From Escherichia phage FS2B: a stretch of DNA of 18,619 nucleotides. Positions 3,469-15,946 of this stretch are shown here, in pieces. Position numbers and translations under genes: made by a program. Within the stretch, counting starts at the first letter, position 1. Each line of letters begins with the position of its first letter. The stretch is from sequence record MW929183.1. One strand, 5' to 3'. The notes under the pieces are model-generated. The model saw nothing but the letters and a program-made list of their open reading frames with translations. It was not told the origin of the DNA and did not search any database.

Positions 3469-4527
3469 TTACGCCGCCACCTTTCCCGCAGCAGTGAACA
3501 GAACGCCGGAAGCGTACGGGTTGCGGTGACGCAGACCAACTTCCATTTCAATCATCCACTTCTCGTAAGAACCGTCTTTAGCCAGTTCAGTACGTTTCGG
3601 AGCACGCAGAACCATCTGAGTCCAGTCAGCGCTACGGAAGAAGTAAACTGCATCGGTAGGCATCCAACGGTTAACGATGATTTTGTAGCTCTGGCCCAGC
3701 GGGTCAGTGATGCTATTAACTTCGTAGATGAACTGCTTGGTGTTCTCAAAGATACGCTTACGTGAACCCTGAGTATTTTCTTGCAGACCAGCAAAGATCT
3801 TAGCATGAGCCGGGTTAATCATGATGATATCTGCTTCAGAACCAGCGGTATACAGTTGCAGAGTCATATCAAAGATATCAGCTTCGTCGAAACCAATGTT
3901 AGTGGTCGGGTTAGAAGCATTCTGTGCAACTTTAACAGTTACTGCACCAGTATCCGGGTCAGCAGGACCATTCTTGGTCTTGTCAACAACGCCACCAGCC
4001 AGACCACCGTGAGCACACAGGAACTGGAATGCACCAGTCTTACGAGCTGCATGGGTGTCATTCAGACCAACAACAGCAGGATCAGTTGCAGAGTTAGTCA
4101 GGTACTGGTCAGCCAGAACGTCGGTACGAGCCTGACCGGACAGAAGGATTTTCTCGAGGTCACGCTTGATCTCTTTACCTTTCTTCTCCAGCTGATACAT
4201 CAGTTCACGACCACGACCGTAGTTAGCGGTGGTGTTAGCAGTATCAGAAACACGAACAACCTTACGCAGAATCTGAGTAACGTTAGATTTGATAACAGTC
4301 GGTTTCATTTCGCCGTCTTCAGCACGAGAGCCTTCGACGTGTGCGTTATTACCGTCAACGCTTGCCAGTGCATCGGTCTGCCAGCTAAAGATAGTCTGGT
4401 TAATAGACTCTTTACCGGTCATAGATACGAACGGGGTATCCTGAGGGGACAGAACAGAAATCCAGTTAGCAAAAGAAAGTTTTTTACCATTCTGGTCATA
4501 CGATACAAATAAAGTTGGATTAGCCAT
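3469..4527 (-). CDS. Major capsid protein, 352 aa
   Basis: ORF directly after the scaffolding gene in the terminase-portal-scaffold-capsid order. ATG 4527, AGGAG ~10 nt upstream, stop TAA at 3469-3471. Size suits an HK97-fold coat protein. Assignment is by synteny and size, not a homology search. Confidence 0.75.
   Translation of the reverse strand: MANPTLFVSYDQNGKKLSFANWISVLSPQDTPFVSMTGKESINQTIFSWQTDALASVDGNNAHVEGSRAEDGEMKPTVIKSNVTQILRKVVRVSDTANTTANYGRGRELMYQLEKKGKEIKRDLEKILLSGQARTDVLADQYLTNSATDPAVVGLNDTHAARKTGAFQFLCAHGGLAGGVVDKTKNGPADPDTGAVTVKVAQNASNPTTNIGFDEADIFDMTLQLYTAGSEADIIMINPAHAKIFAGLQENTQGSRKRIFENTKQFIYEVNSITDPLGQSYKIIVNRWMPTDAVYFFRSADWTQMVLRAPKRTELAKDGSYEKWMIEMEVGLRHRNPYASGVLFTAAGKVAA
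3481..3487 (-). other. Candidate -1 programmed ribosomal frameshift site G GGA AAG in the capsid frame
   Basis: Capsid zero-frame codons GCG GGA AAG GTG GCG GCG TAA. The heptamer GGGAAAG fits X XXY YYZ and matches the slippery sequence used for lambda G/GT. A possible hairpin (AACAGT...ACTGTT, or ACAGT-GUG-ACUGU) starts ~9 nt downstream. Confidence 0.5.
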
Positions 4528-4568
4528 GTTATGTTAGCTCCTATACTATTAATAATTTAATTTGTCGA

Positions 4569-5645
4569 TTAATCTACGAGGAATTTGAATGCGTCTTCGT
4601 GACTAACGCGACCCTCTGCGAATGCCTTGGCAACCTTAGCGTTGTCGGGCTTATTGGAAGTGCGAGACTTTGCAGCATCAGACTTCACAACCTTGCGTGG
4701 AGCACCGGGACGTTTAATCTTAGCCATCACCTGTTGCTTACCTTTATCAAATTGGTATGCTTTATGGAGAGCTAGGAAAATAGACGGACGGTTTTCCTTC
4801 AATACTTCTTCTTCAGTAGCACCTAAGTCAATTGCGTATTGCATTAAGTTTTGATATAAGTTTTCATCCCAATTTGGAATCTCACGTTTCAGAATATTAA
4901 CACATTCAATACTCTTGGCTTGGAAAGCTTCCTGCTCTTTAGCTGCTGCTTCCTGCTTAATACGGACCTGAGCCTGTTCAAGCTGTTGACGGCGAGCTGT
5001 GTACTTCTCTAGGAAACGTTTGTTTTCAACATATGCTTGAGGATCTTCTACTGCAAGCTTGTCCCAATCAAAACCGTTATAATCTTCAATTACTCGGTCT
5101 GCTTCTAAAGACGCTAGTTCTAATACATCCTTCAAACCTACTACACGTTCCTCGAATGCTTCCATATGACGCTGAAGAGTTGATTCTCGTTCTGTCATAT
5201 CAGCACCAGTAAGATAGCCATTAGAAAGTTCTTCAATAGTCATCTCACGTCCATCAGGAAGGGTGATAACGGTTTCGTAGTCTACATCAAAGACTTCACC
5301 TTCACCGTCAGCAGAATCATCTTCATACTCTGCATCGCTTGAATCTTCTTCCTCTTGTTCTTCTGCTTCAGAGGATTCGTCTTCATCTTCTTCGACTTCG
5401 CCTTCCTCTTCACGATCTTCCCAACCATCTTCATCTTCGAACTTAAGCTCATCGCTTTCACCGAGAAGGTCGGTATCAAAGTCGAAATCGTCACCGTCTT
5501 TTTCCGGGAACTCATCGTCAATGTCCACTTCTGGTTCTTGTTCAGATTCTAATCGACCGAGTTCTTCTTTGAAAGAACCTTTCAGGTCATCCAGTTGGAG
5601 GAAAGATTTAAAATCGTTCGGGTCAATATAATTATCTTGTGGCAT
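4569..5645 (-). CDS. Scaffolding protein, 358 aa
   Basis: Very acidic low-complexity N-terminal half (runs of E/D) and helical, coiled-coil-like C-terminal half, positioned between portal and capsid genes. ATG 5645 overlaps the upstream stop by 1 nt (TAATG). Confidence 0.65.
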   Translation of the reverse strand: MPQDNYIDPNDFKSFLQLDDLKGSFKEELGRLESEQEPEVDIDDEFPEKDGDDFDFDTDLLGESDELKFEDEDGWEDREEEGEVEEDEDESSEAEEQEEEDSSDAEYEDDSADGEGEVFDVDYETVITLPDGREMTIEELSNGYLTGADMTERESTLQRHMEAFEERVVGLKDVLELASLEADRVIEDYNGFDWDKLAVEDPQAYVENKRFLEKYTARRQQLEQAQVRIKQEAAAKEQEAFQAKSIECVNILKREIPNWDENLYQNLMQYAIDLGATEEEVLKENRPSIFLALHKAYQFDKGKQQVMAKIKRPGAPRKVVKSDAAKSRTSNKPDNAKVAKAFAEGRVSHEDAFKFLVD

Positions 5646-5881
5646 TATGAAACATCTCCTGCACTATTGATAGCAGCTTTTATGACCTCTTTTAAGCTAC
5701 CAACCATTTTATACTTTTGATAACAATCTTCGCGTTTCTTATTCTCATGAGGTTCTGTTTGAACTATCTCTGTCATGAGTCTTTCTTTCAATGCCTCTAA
5801 TGCTGCGTCAAGACTGCCGTTAAGGTTGAGAGCCGCCAAAGCGGCGGCGTGCTCTTTATTAAATTGATGTCTAATGTTCAT
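5645..5881 (-). CDS. Small hypothetical protein, 78 aa
   Basis: ATG 5881 with SD AAGGA at 6 nt spacing. Stop overlaps the scaffold start codon, suggesting translational coupling. Confidence 0.55.
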   Translation of the reverse strand: MNIRHQFNKEHAAALAALNLNGSLDAALEALKERLMTEIVQTEPHENKKREDCYQKYKMVGSLKEVIKAAINSAGDVS

Positions 5882-5890
5882 TCGACGTCC

Positions 5891-8134
5891 TTAGTTTTTA
5901 CTTCCAAGACGTTTGCCTGGAATCCGTGAATCTTTGAGAGAAGCTTGTTGCTCTTTCTTAGTTACATTAGCTTCTTTCTTTTGGAGTTCCAAAGTTTTAT
6001 CCTGAACACGAGCTTGCTGAACAATCTTCTCTTGGTCTACCTGATGAGACATAACCATCTGCAATTCTTTCAGTACAGATTCATACTGACGTACCTGCTG
6101 TTGCATAAGAGCTAACTTGTGCTTAGCTTGTTCCAGAGTAGCATTGTTATCTTCTTTACGGTTTTCCAGAGTCATTGCATCTGCTGCATTTTCTTGCTTG
6201 AATTGCAACTCTTCCTGACGTAGACTTAATTCATCCGCAGCTTTCTGCTGTTCGAATGTAGTACGTTCACGTTGGTCGAATGCATCAGCAATCATCTTCT
6301 GAGAAGAAGCCTGTACGTTCTCAACCTGAGCTTTAGTCATCTCGAGCTGGAGGATTTCCATCGGAGAAGGTTCTGGAGGCTGATACTGTTCCAGAGGCAG
6401 AAGGTATTTATGTGTATCTTTAATACCCATCAACTCAAAGATCTGTGCAGTCATGTAACGGTCTTGCTCCAAACCAAAGAGAGGTGCTAACTGTGCATCT
6501 GCTGCAATCAGCTGTTTCAAGCTAATCAGCTTCTGTGCACGTTCTGCTTTCTCATTAGGAGAGATGGCTACAACAACTTGAAGGTTGTGACGAGCTGGCA
6601 ATTGTTTCGGATTTACCTGAATCATACCACGAGGGGTTTGTACCTCGATAGGGACTTCACCATTTTCTCTGATAAGATTGTAAATACCACGCATCAGTTC
6701 AACCATACCGTTGTGAGCAATGTTACGACATACCATACGGAGACGGTTCTGTGCAGCATTCATCATCAAGCCTACGGTTGCATAAGCGTTATCATTCTTA
6801 AACACATCAGGGTTGATACCCATGCCTAGTTTAGTTACACCGGTACGTGTCTCTTTAAGCTCCTCAGACATGCCTAGGAGGCCGTCAATACCTTGAGGTA
6901 GGTTATGGTATGGGAACAGGTCAATAGCGTCCTGACGTTCCATTTCAACCACTCCACCGGGACGGTTATCAAGCAGAGAGCGACGATCGTATGCACCAAC
7001 AAGAGCTTTGTATCGACCATAGTTAGCATTGTTGACGTTATCAATATAACCACGAACTAACGCGGTACGTAAATCCTGAATATCTTTCGTAATGTCATAA
7101 ACTGATTGACCATAGAAGGAACCCGGAATCGGATACGGACAGAAGGTTACAAACGGAATGTGAGTTACTTCTTCAGTGTGAAGGATATGCTCACCAGCTT
7201 GAATAACCTGATAGAGTTTAGACTCTTTATTCTTATCTAGAACACCAGTACGAATATAGTGCTCATAAACCCAAACCATAGAAGCGATATCTTCGGTATC
7301 TGTACCAATATCAGCATCAATATCCTGACGCCAGTCAGTACGAGACCAAGCAACTGTAGATTGAGTGGTATCCATCGTATCTGTCCAGTCGTTGAATGCT
7401 TCAATCTCATCTTTAGGGAAGCCCATAGCAACCAGATCTTCTTTAGAACGACGTACACGATGACAGAAGTATTGTGCATCTGCAAAAGAGGTAGCATGTT
7501 CATCAACAAAGATTTGCTCTGAAGGAACATATTCAACTTTCACACGTTTAACAGTTTGTTCATAAGTAACCTTAACATCGACTGTACCGTCTTCATTTTC
7601 TTCAGTGAAGACTTCCAGATTCTTGAGTCCACCAGCTTCTAATCCCTGAACATATGCAGCCAATGCTTCCGGTGGTACACCTTCAGCTTCTTCAGTTTGA
7701 GTAGAAGTTTGTTCATCCCAATAATACTTGATAAAAGAGTTACGAGTAACCAGACATTCTTGTGCAGCAGAAGAGATAATATTGTATCCCGGATTATCAC
7801 GCAGAAGAATTTGGTTAACTAATTTAGTTGCTACATCAGCAGCATCAGAATCCTGTTGGTTGTCAGCTACGAAAGTAACTGCTTCGTCACCAGAACAGAA
7901 TACGTTAATAATATCTTGCAATGTACCGTTAACAGATTCCCAAACAGTACGATCTACCCAACTAGAGCTGCCAGCAGTTACTGGTGCAGGTAAGTTACCA
8001 TAGAAATATTCCCAAGCTTCACGAGCATAGCCCTTAACAGCCATGTCCACGTAGCCTTGAGCGTAATTAAAACGACGTTGAAGGTCAACACGTAACTCGT
8101 CCAACACCTCTTCACTATATTTTTGCTTAGCCAT
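5891..8134 (-). CDS. Portal protein, 747 aa
   Basis: Large ORF immediately downstream of the large terminase gene. ATG 8134 with SD GAGGGAGAG. C-terminal ~150 aa is Q/E/K-rich with heptad character, consistent with a coiled-coil barrel extension as in P22-type portals. Confidence 0.75.
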   Translation of the reverse strand: MAKQKYSEEVLDELRVDLQRRFNYAQGYVDMAVKGYAREAWEYFYGNLPAPVTAGSSSWVDRTVWESVNGTLQDIINVFCSGDEAVTFVADNQQDSDAADVATKLVNQILLRDNPGYNIISSAAQECLVTRNSFIKYYWDEQTSTQTEEAEGVPPEALAAYVQGLEAGGLKNLEVFTEENEDGTVDVKVTYEQTVKRVKVEYVPSEQIFVDEHATSFADAQYFCHRVRRSKEDLVAMGFPKDEIEAFNDWTDTMDTTQSTVAWSRTDWRQDIDADIGTDTEDIASMVWVYEHYIRTGVLDKNKESKLYQVIQAGEHILHTEEVTHIPFVTFCPYPIPGSFYGQSVYDITKDIQDLRTALVRGYIDNVNNANYGRYKALVGAYDRRSLLDNRPGGVVEMERQDAIDLFPYHNLPQGIDGLLGMSEELKETRTGVTKLGMGINPDVFKNDNAYATVGLMMNAAQNRLRMVCRNIAHNGMVELMRGIYNLIRENGEVPIEVQTPRGMIQVNPKQLPARHNLQVVVAISPNEKAERAQKLISLKQLIAADAQLAPLFGLEQDRYMTAQIFELMGIKDTHKYLLPLEQYQPPEPSPMEILQLEMTKAQVENVQASSQKMIADAFDQRERTTFEQQKAADELSLRQEELQFKQENAADAMTLENRKEDNNATLEQAKHKLALMQQQVRQYESVLKELQMVMSHQVDQEKIVQQARVQDKTLELQKKEANVTKKEQQASLKDSRIPGKRLGSKN

Positions 8135-8194: not shown

Positions 8195-9736
8195 TTAGTA
8201 GCTCTGATTCCATCTGCTTACGTTTGCCTCATACAGAGAAGCACTTCCGTAGCTAACGTCATGCTTAGAGCGACCACGATGTGTAACAGAGCACGCTGAA
8301 TAGCGCATTGCATCCATTAAGTCATCATGTTCTTTAATAATCTTACCAACCTTACGGTGATATCTAGCTTTCTCTTCGAATAGCTTAGCATTAGCGGCTG
8401 TGTTAAAGATTTTAAAGCGTCCACTCATCATTCTTTCTCGGATATCTGTGATTCCCGGTTCTACAAAGAAGTTCTTTTTACCATCCATTCCAATTTTGTT
8501 GTAGAAGGTCTCACTCTGTACGTTAACTCCTGCATTCTTATAGAATTGAGCAACAGATGAGCCACTACCTTTCTCAATATTGTCCGCATCGTGCGGCAGG
8601 ATGACAGGAATCCACTGACCACGACCATTAATAGCTGGAGCATGATACACTGGAGTAAAGCCACCTTCTTTATATGAGTCGTAAACATAGATAGTATCCG
8701 TGTTTGCGTCGTAAGCTGTCCAAACAGCAGCAGTTGGGTGATCAATACCAATATCAATTGCACAGACACGTTTCCACGTATCAGGAATTTCGAATGGTTC
8801 ACATTTAATTGTGTCATCCGATACATCATAAATCAAACCACTTCCTAACAATGGCATACCTTTCGAACGCATCTCTAACTGCCACGCTGGAATACCTTCA
8901 GTCATATCTTTTATATCTTGGTCAGTGATATGTCCACCTAGGTCTGCATGAGCATCCCACCAAGAAGCATTCTGGAAATATAGAGAACCTGTGTTCTCAT
9001 CCCCTTCACCTTTCATAAATTTATCTACCAGTTCAGTTAAACCGTTCTCTGGTGTAGCTGTAATTGTAACTAGACCTTTAGTTGTGAGTGTACGTGTGAC
9101 GCACTGTGCGAATATAGCCATAGACTCGTATGGATCTTCTTCGTCTAACCAAATGTAGTCAACTGTTGCACCCATCAATGTGTGTTCACCCTGTTGGGTT
9201 GAACGGAATTCTAATGTACTTAAACCGTCAAACTCTCCTCTTTCATTTTGATGTTTGATTTGTACGATTTGAAGTTTGTTACCATCTCGTTCTATCGTGT
9301 CAATGACGATAGCATCACGAGGAATTACACCTGTCCCCAATAAATTTGTATCCTTTCCGATAGGTGTACCAAACAATTCCTTTTGCAATACTTTCCTTGT
9401 GGAATCCCCTGTAATACCAACTGCCCATGCTAAGATAGGTCTTTTAAATTTATATCCTGTCCACCAAGTTGGGTAGCGACCTGTGACATGACAAGCAAAC
9501 TCGTATGCCTCGCTATAAGATTTACCAACACGGTTCGCTGCACACAAGAATCTAAAGCGATGCTTCAATCCTGCTGCATAAAATTTCTTTTGGAAGTCAT
9601 ACGCCTTGAAAGACAAAATCTTATTATACTTCCTCCATTGGTCACGCTCTTTCAACATATTCAATAGTGCTTTCTTTTCCTCTACACTAAGGTTGTTACC
9701 AGTTAGAGCTTCATAAATTTGTTTATCTAATGACAT
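8195..9736 (-). CDS. terL: Terminase large subunit, 513 aa
   Basis: Walker A-like AANRVGKS followed by HVTGRYP near the N-terminus, acidic WLDEEDP Walker B-like segment, and a C-terminal region with conserved acidic residues consistent with the nuclease domain. ATG 9736 with SD GGAGG. Confidence 0.85.
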   Translation of the reverse strand: MSLDKQIYEALTGNNLSVEEKKALLNMLKERDQWRKYNKILSFKAYDFQKKFYAAGLKHRFRFLCAANRVGKSYSEAYEFACHVTGRYPTWWTGYKFKRPILAWAVGITGDSTRKVLQKELFGTPIGKDTNLLGTGVIPRDAIVIDTIERDGNKLQIVQIKHQNERGEFDGLSTLEFRSTQQGEHTLMGATVDYIWLDEEDPYESMAIFAQCVTRTLTTKGLVTITATPENGLTELVDKFMKGEGDENTGSLYFQNASWWDAHADLGGHITDQDIKDMTEGIPAWQLEMRSKGMPLLGSGLIYDVSDDTIKCEPFEIPDTWKRVCAIDIGIDHPTAAVWTAYDANTDTIYVYDSYKEGGFTPVYHAPAINGRGQWIPVILPHDADNIEKGSGSSVAQFYKNAGVNVQSETFYNKIGMDGKKNFFVEPGITDIRERMMSGRFKIFNTAANAKLFEEKARYHRKVGKIIKEHDDLMDAMRYSACSVTHRGRSKHDVSYGSASLYEANVSRWNQSY

Positions 9737-9805: not shown

Positions 9806-10279
9806 TTAACTCTCGTCCGCTTCCTCCCCCTTTTCAGCGTCCTCAGAGTTGTCTTCTTCTGGAGGCATAACGTCGATACCAAGTGCTCCAGTCAAGAAGT
9901 CCTTGATTTGTGCATTCAATGATTCTTCGTTGATTACATTCTCTTCCTCAATCTTAACTTCAACAGAGGCCGCCTTAGGATATACCAGATCTGCAACTTT
10001 TGATGCAGCCTTGAATCTAAGATCAGGTGGAATATTAGGATCTTCGTAAATTTGAATTAACACTTCATCAGGAGACAAATGACTTGCAGCAACACGGTCC
10101 AACATTAATTGTGTCAGTTTACCTCTACTACCTTTGGGTCGTCCGAATTTATTTCCCTTTTGAAACTTCCCATTGCTTGGGTTCATACCACGGCCTTCAA
10201 GTTCTTCCGTTACTCCGGGTAATCTTCCTGTAATCTCAGCTACCTGTGCAGGCGTGAGTTCTCCGTTTTCTCCAAACAT
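9806..10279 (-). CDS. Putative terminase small subunit, 157 aa
   Basis: Sits immediately upstream of terL. Basic N-terminal segment (GRPKGSRGK) typical of small-terminase DNA-binding regions, acidic C-terminal tail. ATG 10279 with SD AAGGAG at 6 nt spacing. Confidence 0.55.
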   Translation of the reverse strand: MFGENGELTPAQVAEITGRLPGVTEELEGRGMNPSNGKFQKGNKFGRPKGSRGKLTQLMLDRVAASHLSPDEVLIQIYEDPNIPPDLRFKAASKVADLVYPKAASVEVKIEEENVINEESLNAQIKDFLTGALGIDVMPPEEDNSEDAEKGEEADES

Positions 10280-10335: not shown

Positions 10336-10962
10336 TTACTTACAATCACCAACGGACAGGTTAAACATCTTACCTAGAGCAACAGTCTCACCTTCCCACG
10401 GAAGTTCTACACCCTTCTCTTCCTCTAAAAGAATAGAGCCGTCGACCAAAAATTTTTCGTAGTCTCGCAGTGCGTCGTCTACTAGCTCACTCTTGTGAAT
10501 CCACGTAATTGTTTCTGTACCATCCTCTTCGATTCGAACATCACGATGCCATTCATCTTTGGAGGTAATATAATCATGGAGCATTTCGTATTCAGCTTCT
10601 TCAATCATCTCAATCATTGCACGAGCATAGTCAGGGAGGTGATCATGTTTAGTAGATTCATATTCAACTACTTCCAGAGTAGATGGTTGTGTTTTAGAAT
10701 TAGGGCGAGTAGTATGAATCAAATCTAACATATTTTTGTTCTCCGTAATATTTGGTTTAAGAATACTTCCACTATATAAATCTTGTACAGCTAATCCTGA
10801 AACATTTCCCATAGTTTCTAAATGCTGTAAGCTACAACCAGAGCGACATAGCTGTGAATTATAGTCAACCATGTCCATTGCTTTGATGTGGAAAGGAGAG
10901 CCAGAAGGGAAGCTACCTCCATAAACACCTTCCATATTACGTGCGATTATTTGATTATTCAT
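10336..10962 (-). CDS. Hypothetical protein, 208 aa (start revised from the track ORF)
   Basis: Track ORF runs to 11037, but the ATG at 10962 has a strong SD (AAGGGAGA, ~8 nt spacing) while the upstream part overlaps the preceding gene. No recognisable motif. Confidence 0.55.
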   Translation of the reverse strand: MNNQIIARNMEGVYGGSFPSGSPFHIKAMDMVDYNSQLCRSGCSLQHLETMGNVSGLAVQDLYSGSILKPNITENKNMLDLIHTTRPNSKTQPSTLEVVEYESTKHDHLPDYARAMIEMIEEAEYEMLHDYITSKDEWHRDVRIEEDGTETITWIHKSELVDDALRDYEKFLVDGSILLEEEKGVELPWEGETVALGKMFNLSVGDCK

Positions 10963-11209
10963 TTGTATCTCCCTTGCTGTAATCTTTGTATGTTTCTTTT
11001 CTGTAAGTGCGGAATGCTCTGAAGAAGAGCCAACCAAAACTACTTACATCAATTGTAATATCGAAATCTGTTTCATCATCTAAATCAACAAGACGACCTA
11101 AGCATGTAGCTTCCATCCCTTCTTCAGAGTCACTGTTGATTACGAAAGCGTATGTCTCTGTTCTGAACCGAGGCACCATCTCTGATAAAAAATCTAATAC
11201 TAAATTCAT
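10955..11209 (-). CDS. Hypothetical protein, 84 aa, first gene of the leftward block
   Basis: ATG 11209 with SD GGAGAAG. Acidic protein. Its stop overlaps the start region of the 208-aa gene. Confidence 0.5.
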   Translation of the reverse strand: MNLVLDFLSEMVPRFRTETYAFVINSDSEEGMEATCLGRLVDLDDETDFDITIDVSSFGWLFFRAFRTYRKETYKDYSKGDTNE

Positions 11210-11393
11210 AATTCTTCTCCTCTGAATAAGAGTATAAATGGCACATCATAAGACATACCCGTAAAGGCCACCTCACATTAACACCCGTGAGAATACCTGT
11301 ATTCATTTTCGTAGTCTTCTTCAGAGAAGCTACCGTATTCATCTTCTGTCATACATCCCTCTGATAAAGTTAAGACATAAAGGGGACTTCATG

Positions 11394-11441
11394 TTAAGGC
11401 ACTATCACATTAAGGCTATGTCACGTTAAGGCCTATCCATC
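11394..11441 (+). repeat. Three direct TTAAGGC repeats phased at exactly 16 bp (11394, 11410, 11426); the 12-mer TTAAGGCACTAT recurs at 11865
   Basis: Read directly from sequence: gTTAAGGCactatcacaTTAAGGCtatgtcacgTTAAGGCctatcc. Confidence 0.6.
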
Positions 11442-12088
11442 CATGTGCTGTGTTTAAGCTTTCCACATTTACTACATCTCCAAGTGGACTTATAAAGGGT
11501 GTGAACTCTTTCATCCCCGTAAGCTTTGCGTATCCGATAGTACTCATGATCACATTTGAATTGCTTAATGATTAACTTAATTTTCCACATAAGTTCTCTT
11601 TCAACCTTATATATAAGAGTTTAAAATTCTGATTTGACCGAGTGGGGCTAGCCGCTCGCCGCGCGTTTCCTAAAAAGGGGGAGTCCTCATTTAAAAAAGG
11701 GTTATTGGCAATGCCTTTACCTTCCCTTTCAACGTTCCACCTTTCCCCGTGCCTACTCCCCGTAGTTATTCCCCCGTGTATACTACCCAATACATTACCT
11801 ACCCGTTTATTTAGTTCCCCTTTAAAGAGTGAGAGAAAGGCCAGCACTGTATAATGATTAGATTAAGGCACTATGAATAGGCTAATAATACCCATAAGTA
11901 ATAGCCCACATTCCCCATAGTTACGTTGATAATAGTTTCAATAGTAATGATTATGAGTGCAATAATGATATATGTATTAATTAAGTGGAAAGATAGTAAT
12001 TAACAGTTATTATATTCTTTTATTACTTTCTTTTTTCAGCGTACATGAGCGTAGCGAATGGTCTTTGATGTTTGAGTAATGCTATTAA

Positions 12089-12117
12089 TAGTTAACTAAT
12101 TATTTAAGTGGTATATT
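12089..12117 (+). promoter_or_regulatory. Candidate sigma70 promoter with extended -10 (TGgTATATT), possibly driving the rightward early operon
   Basis: TG at 12109-12110, hexamer TATATT at 12112-12117, weak -35 TAGTTA 17 bp upstream. The -35 is weak and the first gene is ~360 nt downstream. Confidence 0.3.
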
Positions 12118-12481
12118 ATTACCGCACTATCTTGCTATGTTTCCCCGTGGTCTATCCTGCGGTTGTATGCTCCCCGTCCTATATAGATAGTAGAAATATT
12201 TTACCCGTAGGACTTGCTTTCCTTATTAAGAAGTAGTAAATTGTATTCATCGAAGCGAAGCAGTGATGCAAAGTAGCTAGATAGTAGTAAGCTCTCTGAA
12301 GACTAATCGGTCTAAGTAAGTGAGAATGTTTAAAGATAAGGACTCTGCGATTGACTGGTGAAAGCTGGAACACTATCGAGTCAGTGAAGAGGCCAACTGA
12401 GCAATGGCCCTACGTGTGAATCAGAAACACGTGCTATCTTGTGAAACATGAAACCAAATACATATCAACGAGGATTCACAA

Positions 12482-12998: not shown

Positions 12999-13265
12999 AT
13001 GGCTATCAAAGAAGTTAAGTTATCAAACGGCTTTTCTTGTTTTGTTGGTGGGCAATCTATCGAGTTTAATACACTTGATGGTCAGATAATCTTGCCTGTT
13101 ATCACTTTTTGCAGGATGGAATATCAGCCTCTTAAAGATTGGCTAGCCTTTGCTGATTTCGAAATTACCCGCGATGATTTCAGATCAATCTATATTGACG
13201 GTGATTTGTCGCTGGCTAACCTGCTTAATCATGGTCTGATTGGGGATGATACCAATGGGAAATGA
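12999..13265 (+). CDS. Hypothetical protein, 88 aa
   Basis: ATG 12999 with SD AGGAG at 7 nt spacing. Confidence 0.6.
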   Translation: MAIKEVKLSNGFSCFVGGQSIEFNTLDGQIILPVITFCRMEYQPLKDWLAFADFEITRDDFRSIYIDGDLSLANLLNHGLIGDDTNGK

Positions 13266-13611: not shown

Positions 13612-13977
13612 ATGGGTGTTATCAAGTTTGTAGTGAAAGTATTTGTAGGCTTCTTTCTGGTTGTTCTCCTGTTAGGTGTCCTGCTGTCATCTATGGGTAG
13701 CGTTAAGGCTGCAACATTTTCCCCTGATACGGTTGACGGTTTACAGTGCACCTATTTGATAGAAAACTATGAAACTGGTAAAAAGTCACCTAAAGTTATT
13801 ATTTTACATGTGAATGATTTCGAACATGTACAATCATACGATAAAACTATTCAACTGGTAAATGAAACCACTGGTAAGCAAATTACGGTGGATCACTTGA
13901 TGCGCTCATCGTTGACGCTCTTTGATGAGTCCATGAATGAAATGGCATCCGGTAACGGTCAATGTGTAAATCCATAG
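13612..13977 (+). CDS. Membrane-anchored or secreted protein, 121 aa
   Basis: ATG 13612 with SD AAAGG upstream. N-terminal hydrophobic segment FVVKVFVGFFLVVLLLGVLL. Two Cys in the C-terminal domain. Confidence 0.65.
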   Translation: MGVIKFVVKVFVGFFLVVLLLGVLLSSMGSVKAATFSPDTVDGLQCTYLIENYETGKKSPKVIILHVNDFEHVQSYDKTIQLVNETTGKQITVDHLMRSSLTLFDESMNEMASGNGQCVNP

Positions 13978-14052
13978 GCTTAATCTTTCTCCTGTATTGT
14001 GCCGTAGTCATGCCTATGGTCATAATTTATCTGATTCTCTAATCCTTCCTGT

Positions 14053-14080
14053 AAGCCTCCTAGTGAGGCTTTTCTCTTTT
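14053..14080 (+). terminator. Rho-independent terminator ending the 12482-13977 operon
   Basis: Perfect 7-bp stem AAGCCUC / GAGGCUU with loop CUAGU, followed by UUCUCUUUU. Confidence 0.7.
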
Positions 14081-14361
14081 ATGAGGTGATTGTATGCCTT
14101 ACTCCCTTTTAGCTCGTTGTGATGCGTTTTAGGCCGCTAAATATCGCTTTACAAGCCATTTTCTATGATGTATCGCGTGCGCCTGCTCTTTTACCTTCCT
14201 ATAGTGAAAAAGTTTAAAATAATTTGCTTTACCCTATTGCAACCTCATCTGATTAGCGTATACTTCATTTCATCGGGTACGATGTAAAACATACAAGGCA
14301 AGAAATTGCCCCGCTCTTTAAAAATCAGGCTAGAAAGTGAAAATATTCTCAAAAAAGAGTA

Positions 14362-14390
14362 TTGACACCGGAAAAAGCCTGATATATAGT
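14362..14390 (+). promoter_or_regulatory. Strong sigma70-type promoter P1: TTGACA, 17 bp spacer, TATAGT, with A-rich upstream element
   Basis: TTGACA at 14362-14367, TATAGT at 14385-14390, spacer exactly 17 bp. A-tract (aaaaaagag) immediately upstream, UP-element-like. Confidence 0.65.
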
Positions 14391-14994
14391 GAGCATAGTC
14401 AGCGATGACTTAAAAAATCCCGCTCTTTAAAAATATGATTTGTCTTACGGGTGGCGGCGACGTCATTACTATAAGGCGCTCAGTTAATCGGTAGAATTGA
14501 TTCCTGATTCATACGTGACGCAGGCGGACAATAAGCAATATCAATAAGCCTTATTTGTTCGATACTTTCAAAAGATTAATGCTTGAAAGCGCACTAGATT
14601 CCCTGAAAGACAAATCAGACTTATCATCTTGCCCTTTCGCATAGATTCACGCGAGATAAGGGAAAGGAATTAAAAGAAGATGATAAAAAGAGTTGCAAAC
14701 GTGGTTAAAGTAGTCCATACTAACCACAAGTTAGCAAAACATCGCTAACTAGTTCCCAAATCAACGTATCGCGGGAAAGGTGGCACATAGTGCAGCGATT
14801 AGTTCAGGTGTAGGCGGCCTGTTAATGAATCAGTAAGCCTTCAATGTGACAGTGATTAGCAGACACTTTAAAAGGCTAAACGCTCTTTAACAATATGAGT
14901 CATAAGTTAAGCCTCACCGCTTAATCTTCAATCAAATAAAGCTGATTGATATATCCTCCCAATAGCGGGAACGACGAAAAAGATTAAAAAGCGG

Positions 14995-15023
14995 TTGACA
15001 GCGAAAACAACATGATTCATAAT
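14995..15023 (+). promoter_or_regulatory. Strong sigma70-type promoter P2: TTGACA, 17 bp spacer, CATAAT; paralogous to P1
   Basis: TTGACA at 14995-15000, CATAAT at 15018-15023. A-rich upstream (aaaaagattaaaaag). Both P1 and P2 are followed by GAGCA just after the -10. Confidence 0.65.
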
Positions 15024-15946
15024 GAGCACTCACTAAGCAAATCATCGCTTCAGTGAAAAGCGTAACAACGGCTAACAGTTGCATAGTGTGAGAAAGCACA
15101 CTGATAGATTTACCGCTCTTTAATAATTTAAACATTCTCCTATATCGGTTGAATATGCTTGATGATAATAACCATCGGAAAGCATACCAGATAAAACGGC
15201 GTAAAACTCCCTAAATTATCAGGGTAAACAGTTTTACATTCCCTTACTGGAAACGTCACCATTGATAAACGGATTCATTGAGTACACGCAAAGACTTGAG
15301 CTAATCGCCCACGGTTAAGGGTAGCGGCGGTCATTGCTAACACGGTGCTACAGTGAAAGAAGTTAATCAGGGTAGGCAAGTCCGACGAATTAACGCTCAA
15401 TTGAGAGCGGCGGGGAGTGGTTAAAAAGTGGCAAATTGCTATTTAACAATAAGGTTTAATGCGAACGTTTACGATGTGAACGGCTTGAGATTCATCATAG
15501 GATGAAAGTACATAGCCGGGTTATGTAGTAAACCTGCTGAAAGATATAAAACGCCGGAATATTAGGCGGTTAGTGACTCTTTCGCAATAGTATCCCGTAG
15601 TGGGCGATGACTAGCGATAGAGAGCTGATACAAAAGGATAAGCGGGAGCGAAAACAAAGTAGACGATATTGCCGACGGTTACAATAACGTAACTAATTAG
15701 AGTCGGACGCACTGCCTTATTGTGATGATTGATCATCGCTATCAGGTCGGCTTCGTTTATAGCGACTAATTAAAGATACCAGATGAAACATCACGGATAA
15801 GGGGGCGGCAAGGTTAACTCCTGATAAGACCGCCCCGCTTACCTATAACTACTTAACAACGAGTGGTTATAGTTAAGTTAATAGTGACTTAAACAAGCTC
15901 ATAGAGAGCGGGGCAATAGCGCCCTTACAATTGAAAGGTGAATATT

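Follow-up and report, generated by a model that had tools for sequence, protein, structure and literature searches.

Terminases are known to bind repeated short motifs around the site of cutting in several phages, and the established cases are the R sites of lambda cosB, the hexamers of P1 pac and the pacL and pacR sites of SPP1. For phages with short and exact direct terminal repeats (DTRs), T7 included, it is poorly understood how the junction is recognized, how the cuts that flank a single copy of the repeat are made, and how the direction of packaging is determined. The closest described counterpart of the locus studied here is the DTR of phiEco32 and its relatives in the genus Kuravirus, which is homologous to our locus at the sequence level and agrees with it in length, boundaries and flanking genes. 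According to the summary given in PMC9965538, the phiEco32 DTR was mapped with restriction profiling, primer walking and subcloning (Savalia et al., 2008). DTRs of 193 bp have been confirmed in YF01 by full-length nanopore reads and in Paul by PhageTerm, and DTRs of 192–193 bp have been found by similarity in 30 phages (PMC9965538). In the published descriptions of Kuravirus DTRs that we found, the repeat and a conserved core are noted, and two features described below go unmentioned, namely a one-way array of CCCGT motifs and a GGCY^AGC motif common to both boundaries of the repeat.

The window analyzed here is a stretch of 18,619 nucleotides from Escherichia phage FS2B (MW929183.1). The long genes that run leftward and those that run rightward are separated by a gap of 1.27 kb (11210–12481), as an earlier note on this DNA had stated, and the region matched 95 phage records, nearly all of them from phiEco32-related Kuravirus phages of Escherichia and Shigella; in IMG/VR only two related loci were found. 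The phiEco32 record NC_010324 has an exact terminal redundancy of 193 bp, which aligns to window positions 11650–11842. Its left-end piece is 95% identical, with the DTR copy aligned as far as 11841, and its right-end piece is 89% identical, with the DTR copy beginning at 11650. Four independent records (phiEco32, YW01, ES17 and IME267) begin within a few bases of window position 11842. The flanks of the DTR are in the expected order: the minus-strand genes to the left are the left-end set of phiEco32 (gp4, gp5, the gp6 homolog, the large terminase and the portal), the plus-strand genes to the right are the right-end early genes running rightward, and both the left-end genes (gp1–gp8, TerS, TerL and portal) and the right-end early genes are transcribed away from the DTR. 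The repeat is present only once in the window, as is expected when a linear genome with a DTR is assembled as a circle or a concatemer. From these comparisons, the interval is almost certainly a concatemer junction, from a phiEco32-like (Kuravirus) podophage with a linear genome that was assembled across its ends. One suggestion of the earlier note, that the region could hold the genome termini of a linear phage after circular assembly, is thereby upheld, by the exact alignment of the mapped phiEco32 DTR and by the independent GenBank records that start at its boundary. The DTR junction of a Kuravirus phage is known biology, and it explains where the CCCGT array is located. We point out that the true genome ends of this phage group, many of whose GenBank records are circularly permuted, are established by this result. 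The features of the junction and its surroundings are collected in Table 1.

Table 1. Features of the junction and its surroundings, in window coordinates.
Feature	Position	Strand	Basis
Large terminase (TerL)	8195..9736	-	PHROG terminase large subunit
Candidate small terminase (TerS), homolog of phiEco32 gp6	9806..10279	-	Profile search
Three left-flank CCCGT copies (11258, 11284, 11516), of which 11516 lies within the zinc-ribbon gene	11258..11520	+	
Second repeat family, 16-bp tandem units CAYRTTAAGGC, 3–4 copies	11377..11432	+	
Conserved 54-aa CxH...CxxC (zinc-ribbon-like) gene	11426..11590	-	Allele comparison, codon-position substitutions
Invariant block on the inner side of the left genome end; sigma-70 promoter proposed for the first left-end gene	11605..11641	-	Conservation; SU10 homolog
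DTR boundary motif GGCT^AGC; inferred cut giving the right end of virion DNA	11646..11652		Boundary position; CTAG core conserved in 12 genomes
193-bp direct terminal repeat (DTR), collapsed into a single copy	11650..11842		phiEco32 redundancy aligned; flank gene order
GC-rich block, terminal 15 bp at the right end of virion DNA	11651..11665		DTR alignment; GC content
Most conserved DTR core (TAAAAAGGGGGAGTCCTCATTTAAAAAAG...)	11668..11720		12-genome alignment
Four CCCGT copies inside the DTR (11746, 11759, 11773, 11802), spacing 13, 14, 29 bp	11746..11806	+	
DTR boundary motif GGCC^AGC (phiEco32: GGCT^AGC); inferred cut giving the left end of virion DNA	11839..11845		CTAG in 9/12 genomes
AT-rich block, 27% GC, with invariant sub-blocks	11850..12120		GC content; alignment
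Two degenerate copies (CCCAT); TCCCCATAGTT at 11911-11921 invariant in relatives	11891..11918	+	
Extended -10-like element TGGTATATT, putative promoter, within the AT-rich block	12109-12117		
Three right-flank CCCGT copies (12144, 12173, 12204), spacing 29, 31 bp	12144..12208	+	

Both boundaries of the DTR have GGCY^AGC with a CTAG core in common, and we read the two as putative nicking sites of the terminase. The GC-rich block that had been pointed out before at ~11651–11665 is indeed there, the GC content being 75% in the first 20 nt of the DTR, compared with 42% for the whole window and 27% for 11850–12120; among relatives the richness in GC is retained while the sequence itself is variable. 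The core at 11668–11720 corresponds to the conserved DTR positions ~130–170 reported for 30 phages (PMC9965538). The SU10 sequence homologous to the invariant block at 11605–11641 is listed by the SU10 authors as a putative sigma-70 promoter upstream of CDS1. The SU10 promoter upstream of CDS125 was not found in the window, as the window carries a different allele to the right of 12210. Rfam and tRNA scans of the whole window found nothing, and a hairpin-based signal is unsupported, since single-strand DNA folding of 11620–11870 was less stable than that of shuffles (z = +1.56).

The 18.6-kb window contains 24 copies of CCCGT, ten of which lie on the plus strand between 11258 and 12208; no copy was found on the minus strand between 4436 and 14446. 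The earlier note had counted about 11, all on the plus strand; the strand bias stands, and the number is ten. The consensus drawn from the ten copies is T-[C/A]-CCCGT-R, and five of them read TCCCCGT, the kind of context that had been noted as tTCCCCGTg. Four copies lie inside the DTR, in its right half, and three in each flank, and the copies stand 40–96 bp from one DTR boundary and within 134–584 bp of the others. If the degenerate copies CCCAT at 11891 and 11914 are counted, [AC]CCC[GA]T is found 12 times on the plus strand of the junction and 0 times on the minus strand, and the successive spacings are 26, 232, 230, 13, 14, 29, 89, 23, 230, 29 and 31 bp. We considered whether the recurring distance of ~230 bp between clusters is meaningful, but it is probably a coincidence, one of these distances being changed by indels in relatives.

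The enrichment over the single copy or so that chance would give, also claimed before, is confirmed by several counts. Depending on the model, 0.4–1.3 copies are expected, compared with the ten observed in 951 bp. Measured against the rest of the window, 0.38 copies are expected per strand (Poisson P ~1e-11), and among 5000 dinucleotide-preserving shuffles of the region (mean 1.3, maximum 7) none reached ten. To avoid cherry-picking, we enumerated all 5-, 6- and 7-mers in 11210–12481 against the rest of the window, and CCCGT, CCCCGT and TCCCCGT each ranked first, with P ~3e-10 for CCCGT in the 5-mer search. In sliding windows of 1272 bp, used as a control, the best 5-mer usually had a P of 1e-4 to 1e-6, and the sole comparable signal was TCTTC in 4453–6360, a coding run of low complexity. 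In the whole genome of phiEco32, T[CA]CCCGT is present 16 times in the orientation of the array, with 13 of these sites no more than 650 bp from an end and the other 3 farther away, and 3 times in the opposite orientation.

The layout of the array, 2+1+4+3 copies from left to right, recurs in 11 relatives (phiEco32, one IMG/VR genome and nine further GenBank Kuravirus genomes). In these, one or two copies are found far to the left, one 228–270 bp before the DTR cluster, four in the DTR and three to the right, ~29/30 bp apart; the second left copy is missing in 1-6af and FH3. The spacing of the DTR copies, 13/14/29 bp, is invariant in 12 Kuravirus genomes and in IME267, and copies on the opposite strand of the junction number 0 in the window phage and 13 relatives. 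When 12 genomes are aligned, 84% of the columns in motifs are invariant versus 47% of those outside; the motif columns of the DTR are fully conserved, and copies such as those at 12171–12177 and 12201–12208 stand out as conserved islands amid diverged sequence. IME267, which belongs to the sister genus Suseptimavirus, has kept the four DTR copies and the right triple and is devoid of the left copies. In EK010, likewise a Suseptimavirus, the right half of the DTR is non-homologous, and [AC]CCC[GA]T occurs 15 times on the plus strand and 0 times on the minus strand across the junction. Judging from these alignments, the CCCGT array is under constraint. For copy 11516, which lies in the codons for KAYGDER of the zinc-ribbon gene, synonymous codons are identical between alleles in 7 of 8 cases, versus 9 of 21 in the rest of the gene (Fisher P = 0.04), a weak sign of extra constraint at the nucleotide level. 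In the more distant 7-11-like Salmonella phage pSal-SNUABM-01 we found no CCCGT array; other motifs are repeated in its equivalent non-coding stretch of 2.2 kb, with statistics that are weak because the background is very small.

The large terminase encoded to the left of the junction is 98.8% identical to that of phiEco32, 39% to that of LUZ24 and 32% to that of P22. The gp6 homolog at 9806–10279 is likely the small terminase, judging from a profile of 34 homologs that matches the small terminases in the PDB entries 7JOQ (E = 7e-4) and 6W7T, from PaP3 (E = 0.05); DUF5681 is present in 11 of the 34 homologs. The authors of the YF01 study also arrived at a small terminase for the gp6 homolog, with HHpred (PMC9965538). 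A single-sequence search of the PDB and a BLASTP comparison with LUZ24 TerS gave no match for the candidate. Its AlphaFold model is mediocre (pLDDT 70), and Foldseek ranks PaP3 TerS chains second to fourth at a level that is not significant.

We favor the reading that the CCCGT copies constitute a terminase-recognition array that marks the concatemer junction, and we would put its probability at roughly 0.4. The copies would then be bound by one of the phage's own proteins, most likely the TerS encoded 1.4 kb away. We suggest that the small terminase would bind the copies and that the bound complex would be polar, since every CCCGT site has the same orientation. This polar complex could mark the junction in replicated concatemers, it could position TerL to nick both GGCY^AGC boundaries, with a duplication of the repeat in the style of T7, and it could set the direction of packaging. 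In favor of this reading, copies flank each of the inferred cut sites on either side and are present in the DTR itself, and the TerS and TerL genes adjoin the junction. The arrangement resembles R1–R3 of lambda cosB, the hexamers of P1 pac (4+3 on the two sides of the cut) and pacL/pacR of SPP1, where several short sites flank the terminase cut and the terminase genes are adjacent, and the CCCGT copies could plausibly act in the manner of a pac site. The likeness is not complete, as binding of TerS has been demonstrated for those sites, whereas for CCCGT it is a prediction, and as those systems make cos or headful ends, whereas Kuravirus has short exact DTRs.

Several observations speak against terminase recognition by the CCCGT copies. 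The biochemistry of PaP3 TerS, a homologous small terminase, used a 20-bp GC-rich end sequence and no repeat array, and by analogy the TerS of our phage might read the GC-rich block or the conserved core in 11651–11720 in place of the CCCGT copies. LUZ24, which has the closest TerL among phages with a known DTR and a similar genome layout, is without a strand-pure array. The left-flank copies are not kept in IME267. Finally, the right triple adjoins promoter-like elements, which allows a role in transcription, considered below.

The unbiased enumeration of k-mers applied to the window was also run on the junctions of T7, SP6 and LUZ24. T7 has CCTAAAG 13 times, 3 times in its 160-bp DTR, 8 times just inside the left end and twice before the right DTR, with 0 copies on the opposite strand, and SP6 has CTTAGT 14 times, again with 0 copies on the opposite strand. 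No single strand-pure motif emerged from the enumeration at the LUZ24 junction. The arrays of T7 and SP6 resemble ours in that a motif of 5–7 bp is present in 10–14 copies per ~1 kb on one strand, inside the DTR and to either side of it, in the stretch from the genome end to the early promoters. For the features that we tested as typical of T7 and SP6, the CCCGT array has ten copies within ~1 kb centered on the DTR, far above the genome background, a single orientation, and copies inside the DTR and in both flanks. The Kuravirus array belongs to a kind that is visible in T7-like phages, and the kind is not universal. The motifs and the phage family are unrelated to those of Kuravirus, which relies on host RNA polymerase and a phage sigma factor, with no T7-type polymerase, and whose terminase is of the P22/LUZ24 type, unlike those of T7 and SP6.

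The T7 arrays are reportedly the SRL and SRR of Dunn and Studier from 1983. To our knowledge, these heptamer arrays have been without an assigned function ever since the sequence appeared in 1983, and we know of no demonstration that they are terminase sites; our full-text literature search for CCTAAAG returned primers only. An equivalent array in an unrelated phage group, smaller and evolutionarily constrained, suggests a general requirement. It is possible, though on balance doubtful, that strand-pure, lineage-specific arrays are a convergent device of short-DTR podophages (T7, SP6, Kuravirus and possibly the 7-11-like phages with TAACTCA), each read by a protein specific to its lineage that would impose a direction on cutting, repeat duplication and packaging at the junction. 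Kuravirus is well suited for tests of such convergence, with 10–12 sites that are mostly non-coding and with EK010 and IME267 as natural variants, and its array provides a short list of sites for mutation.

Alternatively, the CCCGT copies could serve some other function at the ends of the DNA: they might hold or brake the leading end as the DNA is ejected, fix the end packaged last to the portal or core, or shield the free ends once the DNA has entered. The array copies of phiEco32 all lie within ~650 bp of the ends of virion DNA, the early sigma-70 promoters are located at the right end and read inward, and the arrays of T7 and SP6 lie in the corresponding part of the leading end, which separates the DTR from the early promoters, all of which would fit such a role. 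As the right end carries the early promoters, it probably enters first. However, sites are found at both ends of the DNA and yet only one end leads, and the analysis offers no candidate protein for holding an end. We know of no experimental precedent for an end-holding role of the T7 arrays, and altogether we regard this explanation as unlikely.

The region could also be a replication origin, one of the options given in the earlier note. The CCCGT copies would then be iteron-like sites for an initiator, and the AT-rich block would be the unwinding element. The likeness to the iterons of plasmid and lambdoid origins is that of direct repeats beside an AT-rich stretch: the array is adjacent to the 27% GC block at 11850–12120, and a second family of tandem repeats (TTAAGGC) is found nearby. 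In T7, phiOL and phiOR are annotated near both ends, and these are secondary origins. Iterons are however 17–22 bp long and regularly spaced, with the initiator gene adjacent, whereas the CCCGT core is 5–8 bp, its spacing varies irregularly from 13 to 232 bp, and among the flanking genes neither PHROGs nor Pfam identified a Rep, O or other initiator family. The array furthermore spans 950 bp, coding sequence included. Kuravirus phages encode a T7-type primase-helicase and polymerase, and the T7 replisome starts from transcripts and not from iterons. The iteron proposal thus finds little support, and we consider an origin at this site improbable. We did not count GC skew as evidence for an origin, since its minimum falls where the genes change direction.

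A third possibility is that the copies are operators or leader elements of early transcription, with a phage or host factor that binds the right triple to turn early transcription on or off, or with transcribed CCCCGU boxes that act in the RNA. The right triple starts 27 nt past the invariant extended -10-like element TGGTATATT, and with a spacing of ~30 bp its sites all face the same side of the DNA. Moreover, phiEco32 has a near-consensus promoter 125 bp further in, and the right triple lies upstream of the gp128 promoter. What makes this proposal quite improbable in our view is that the copies have the same orientation on either side of divergently transcribed genes, that four of them lie in the DTR and others in coding sequence, and that the distance to the strong phiEco32 promoter differs between alleles, the allele of the window being without that promoter. 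The sequence between the copies is not conserved, and no Rfam match was obtained.

It is very unlikely that the CCCGT copies are strand-specific nicking sites comparable to the localized single-strand interruptions of T5, the phiKMV-like phages and phage tf. The consensus is strand-pure, the phage encodes several HNH endonucleases, and relatives in the LUZ24 group have consensus sites for nicks in one strand (PMC3517423), but the known nick sites are dispersed along the genome and not clustered at its ends (PMC3517423), their consensus sequences are far longer than CCCGT, and the literature that we found reports no nicks for phiEco32-like phages. We give hardly any credence to an array without function, as a relic of old local duplications or an accident of composition, since its enrichment and strand purity far exceed the controls, its copies are conserved amid diverged intervening sequence and it has been re-created in the non-homologous context of EK010, even though the DTR cluster and the right triple share the order of the variants TTTCCCCGTG, CTCCCCGT and TACCCGT, a hint of duplication in an ancestor.

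The earlier note had regarded the region as free of credible ORFs, and this did not hold. The ORF at 11426–11590(-) has the product MWKIKLIIKQFKCDHEYYRIRKAYGDERVHTLYKSTWRCSKCGKLKHSTWMDRP, and its diverged allele, found in XT32, 1-6af and others, is 60% identical with CxH...CxxC kept, the substitutions between the alleles being distributed 16/12/29 over codon positions 1/2/3. To the left of this zinc-ribbon gene we found short variable ORFs only, and a Pfam search with nine small proteins encoded in the flanks gave no match. The zinc-ribbon ORF is annotated as a CDS in several relatives. In the RefSeq record of phiEco32, gene 1 is annotated in a different frame, which is not conserved in the way that the frame of 11426–11590 is, and one GenBank record has the wrong frame for gene 1.

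Beyond the rightmost CCCGT copy of the array, window 12210-12481 occurs as two alleles, which we call the window type and the phiEco32 type, and the mosaic boundary between the two falls exactly after the CCCGT array. In the window-type allele the first early gene encodes 163 aa. In the phiEco32 type a 290-aa gene follows a TTGACA-17-TATAGT promoter, which is missing from the window type.

On the left side of the direct terminal repeat (DTR) we find a second repeat family (see the table), whose tandem units begin exactly where the zinc-ribbon gene has its stop codon and which differs among relatives both in copy number and in an inserted palindrome. The zinc-ribbon gene itself, a 54-aa CxH...CxxC ORF (window 11426-11590), is kept across diverged alleles. 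Gene 1 of phiEco32 in RefSeq (NC_010324 296-496) is called in a different frame from this ORF and is probably a mis-called gene.

The junction of the Suseptimavirus EK010 (NC_070981), at ~1560-1790 of the joined sequence, carries a ~140-bp tandem duplication, both copies of which terminate in the right-boundary sequence of the DTR, GAAAGGCTAG. Either the assembly produced this duplication artificially at the DTR, or the boundary may be genuinely duplicated. The 7-11-like Salmonella phage pSal-SNUABM-01 has a 2.2-kb non-coding stretch in the position equivalent to the window junction, with repeated motifs of its own (TTATAAC, six copies; TAACTCA, five copies in one orientation). The same phage has seven tRNA genes in a run, with a DUF5681 gene on one side and the gene for the large terminase (TerL) on the other.

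Features of the window by position
Feature	Window position	Remark
16-bp tandem units CAYRTTAAGGC, second repeat family	11377-11432	related unit at 11261-11281
Small proteins with PHROG labels 'ABC transporter', 'polymerase', 'terminase'	10336-11037, 12999-13265, 13612-13977	
Terminator-like hairpin	14053	
Near-consensus sigma-70 promoter TTGACA-17-TATAGT	14362	matches SU10 early promoter
Near-consensus sigma-70 promoter TTGACA-17-CATAAT	14995	matches SU10 early promoter

As for the coding regions, the PHROG labels of the tabulated small proteins were unsupported in a Pfam search of these proteins, and look like carry-over from old record annotation. TCTTC occurs 18 times on the plus strand in window 4453-6360 (GAAGA on the coding strand), in a run that spans the ORFs 4569-5645 and 5645-5881 together with the end of the portal gene. 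The run appears to be low-complexity coding sequence of the acidic/basic kind, probably from the scaffold gene.

A second stretch poor in ORFs, ~2 kb long, lies at window 13978-15937 and contains the terminator-like hairpin and both sigma-70 promoters of the table. Transcripts from this stretch would be long and untranslated. Rfam and tRNA scans of the whole window gave no match within it, and it holds four copies of TAAGCCT, all on the same strand.
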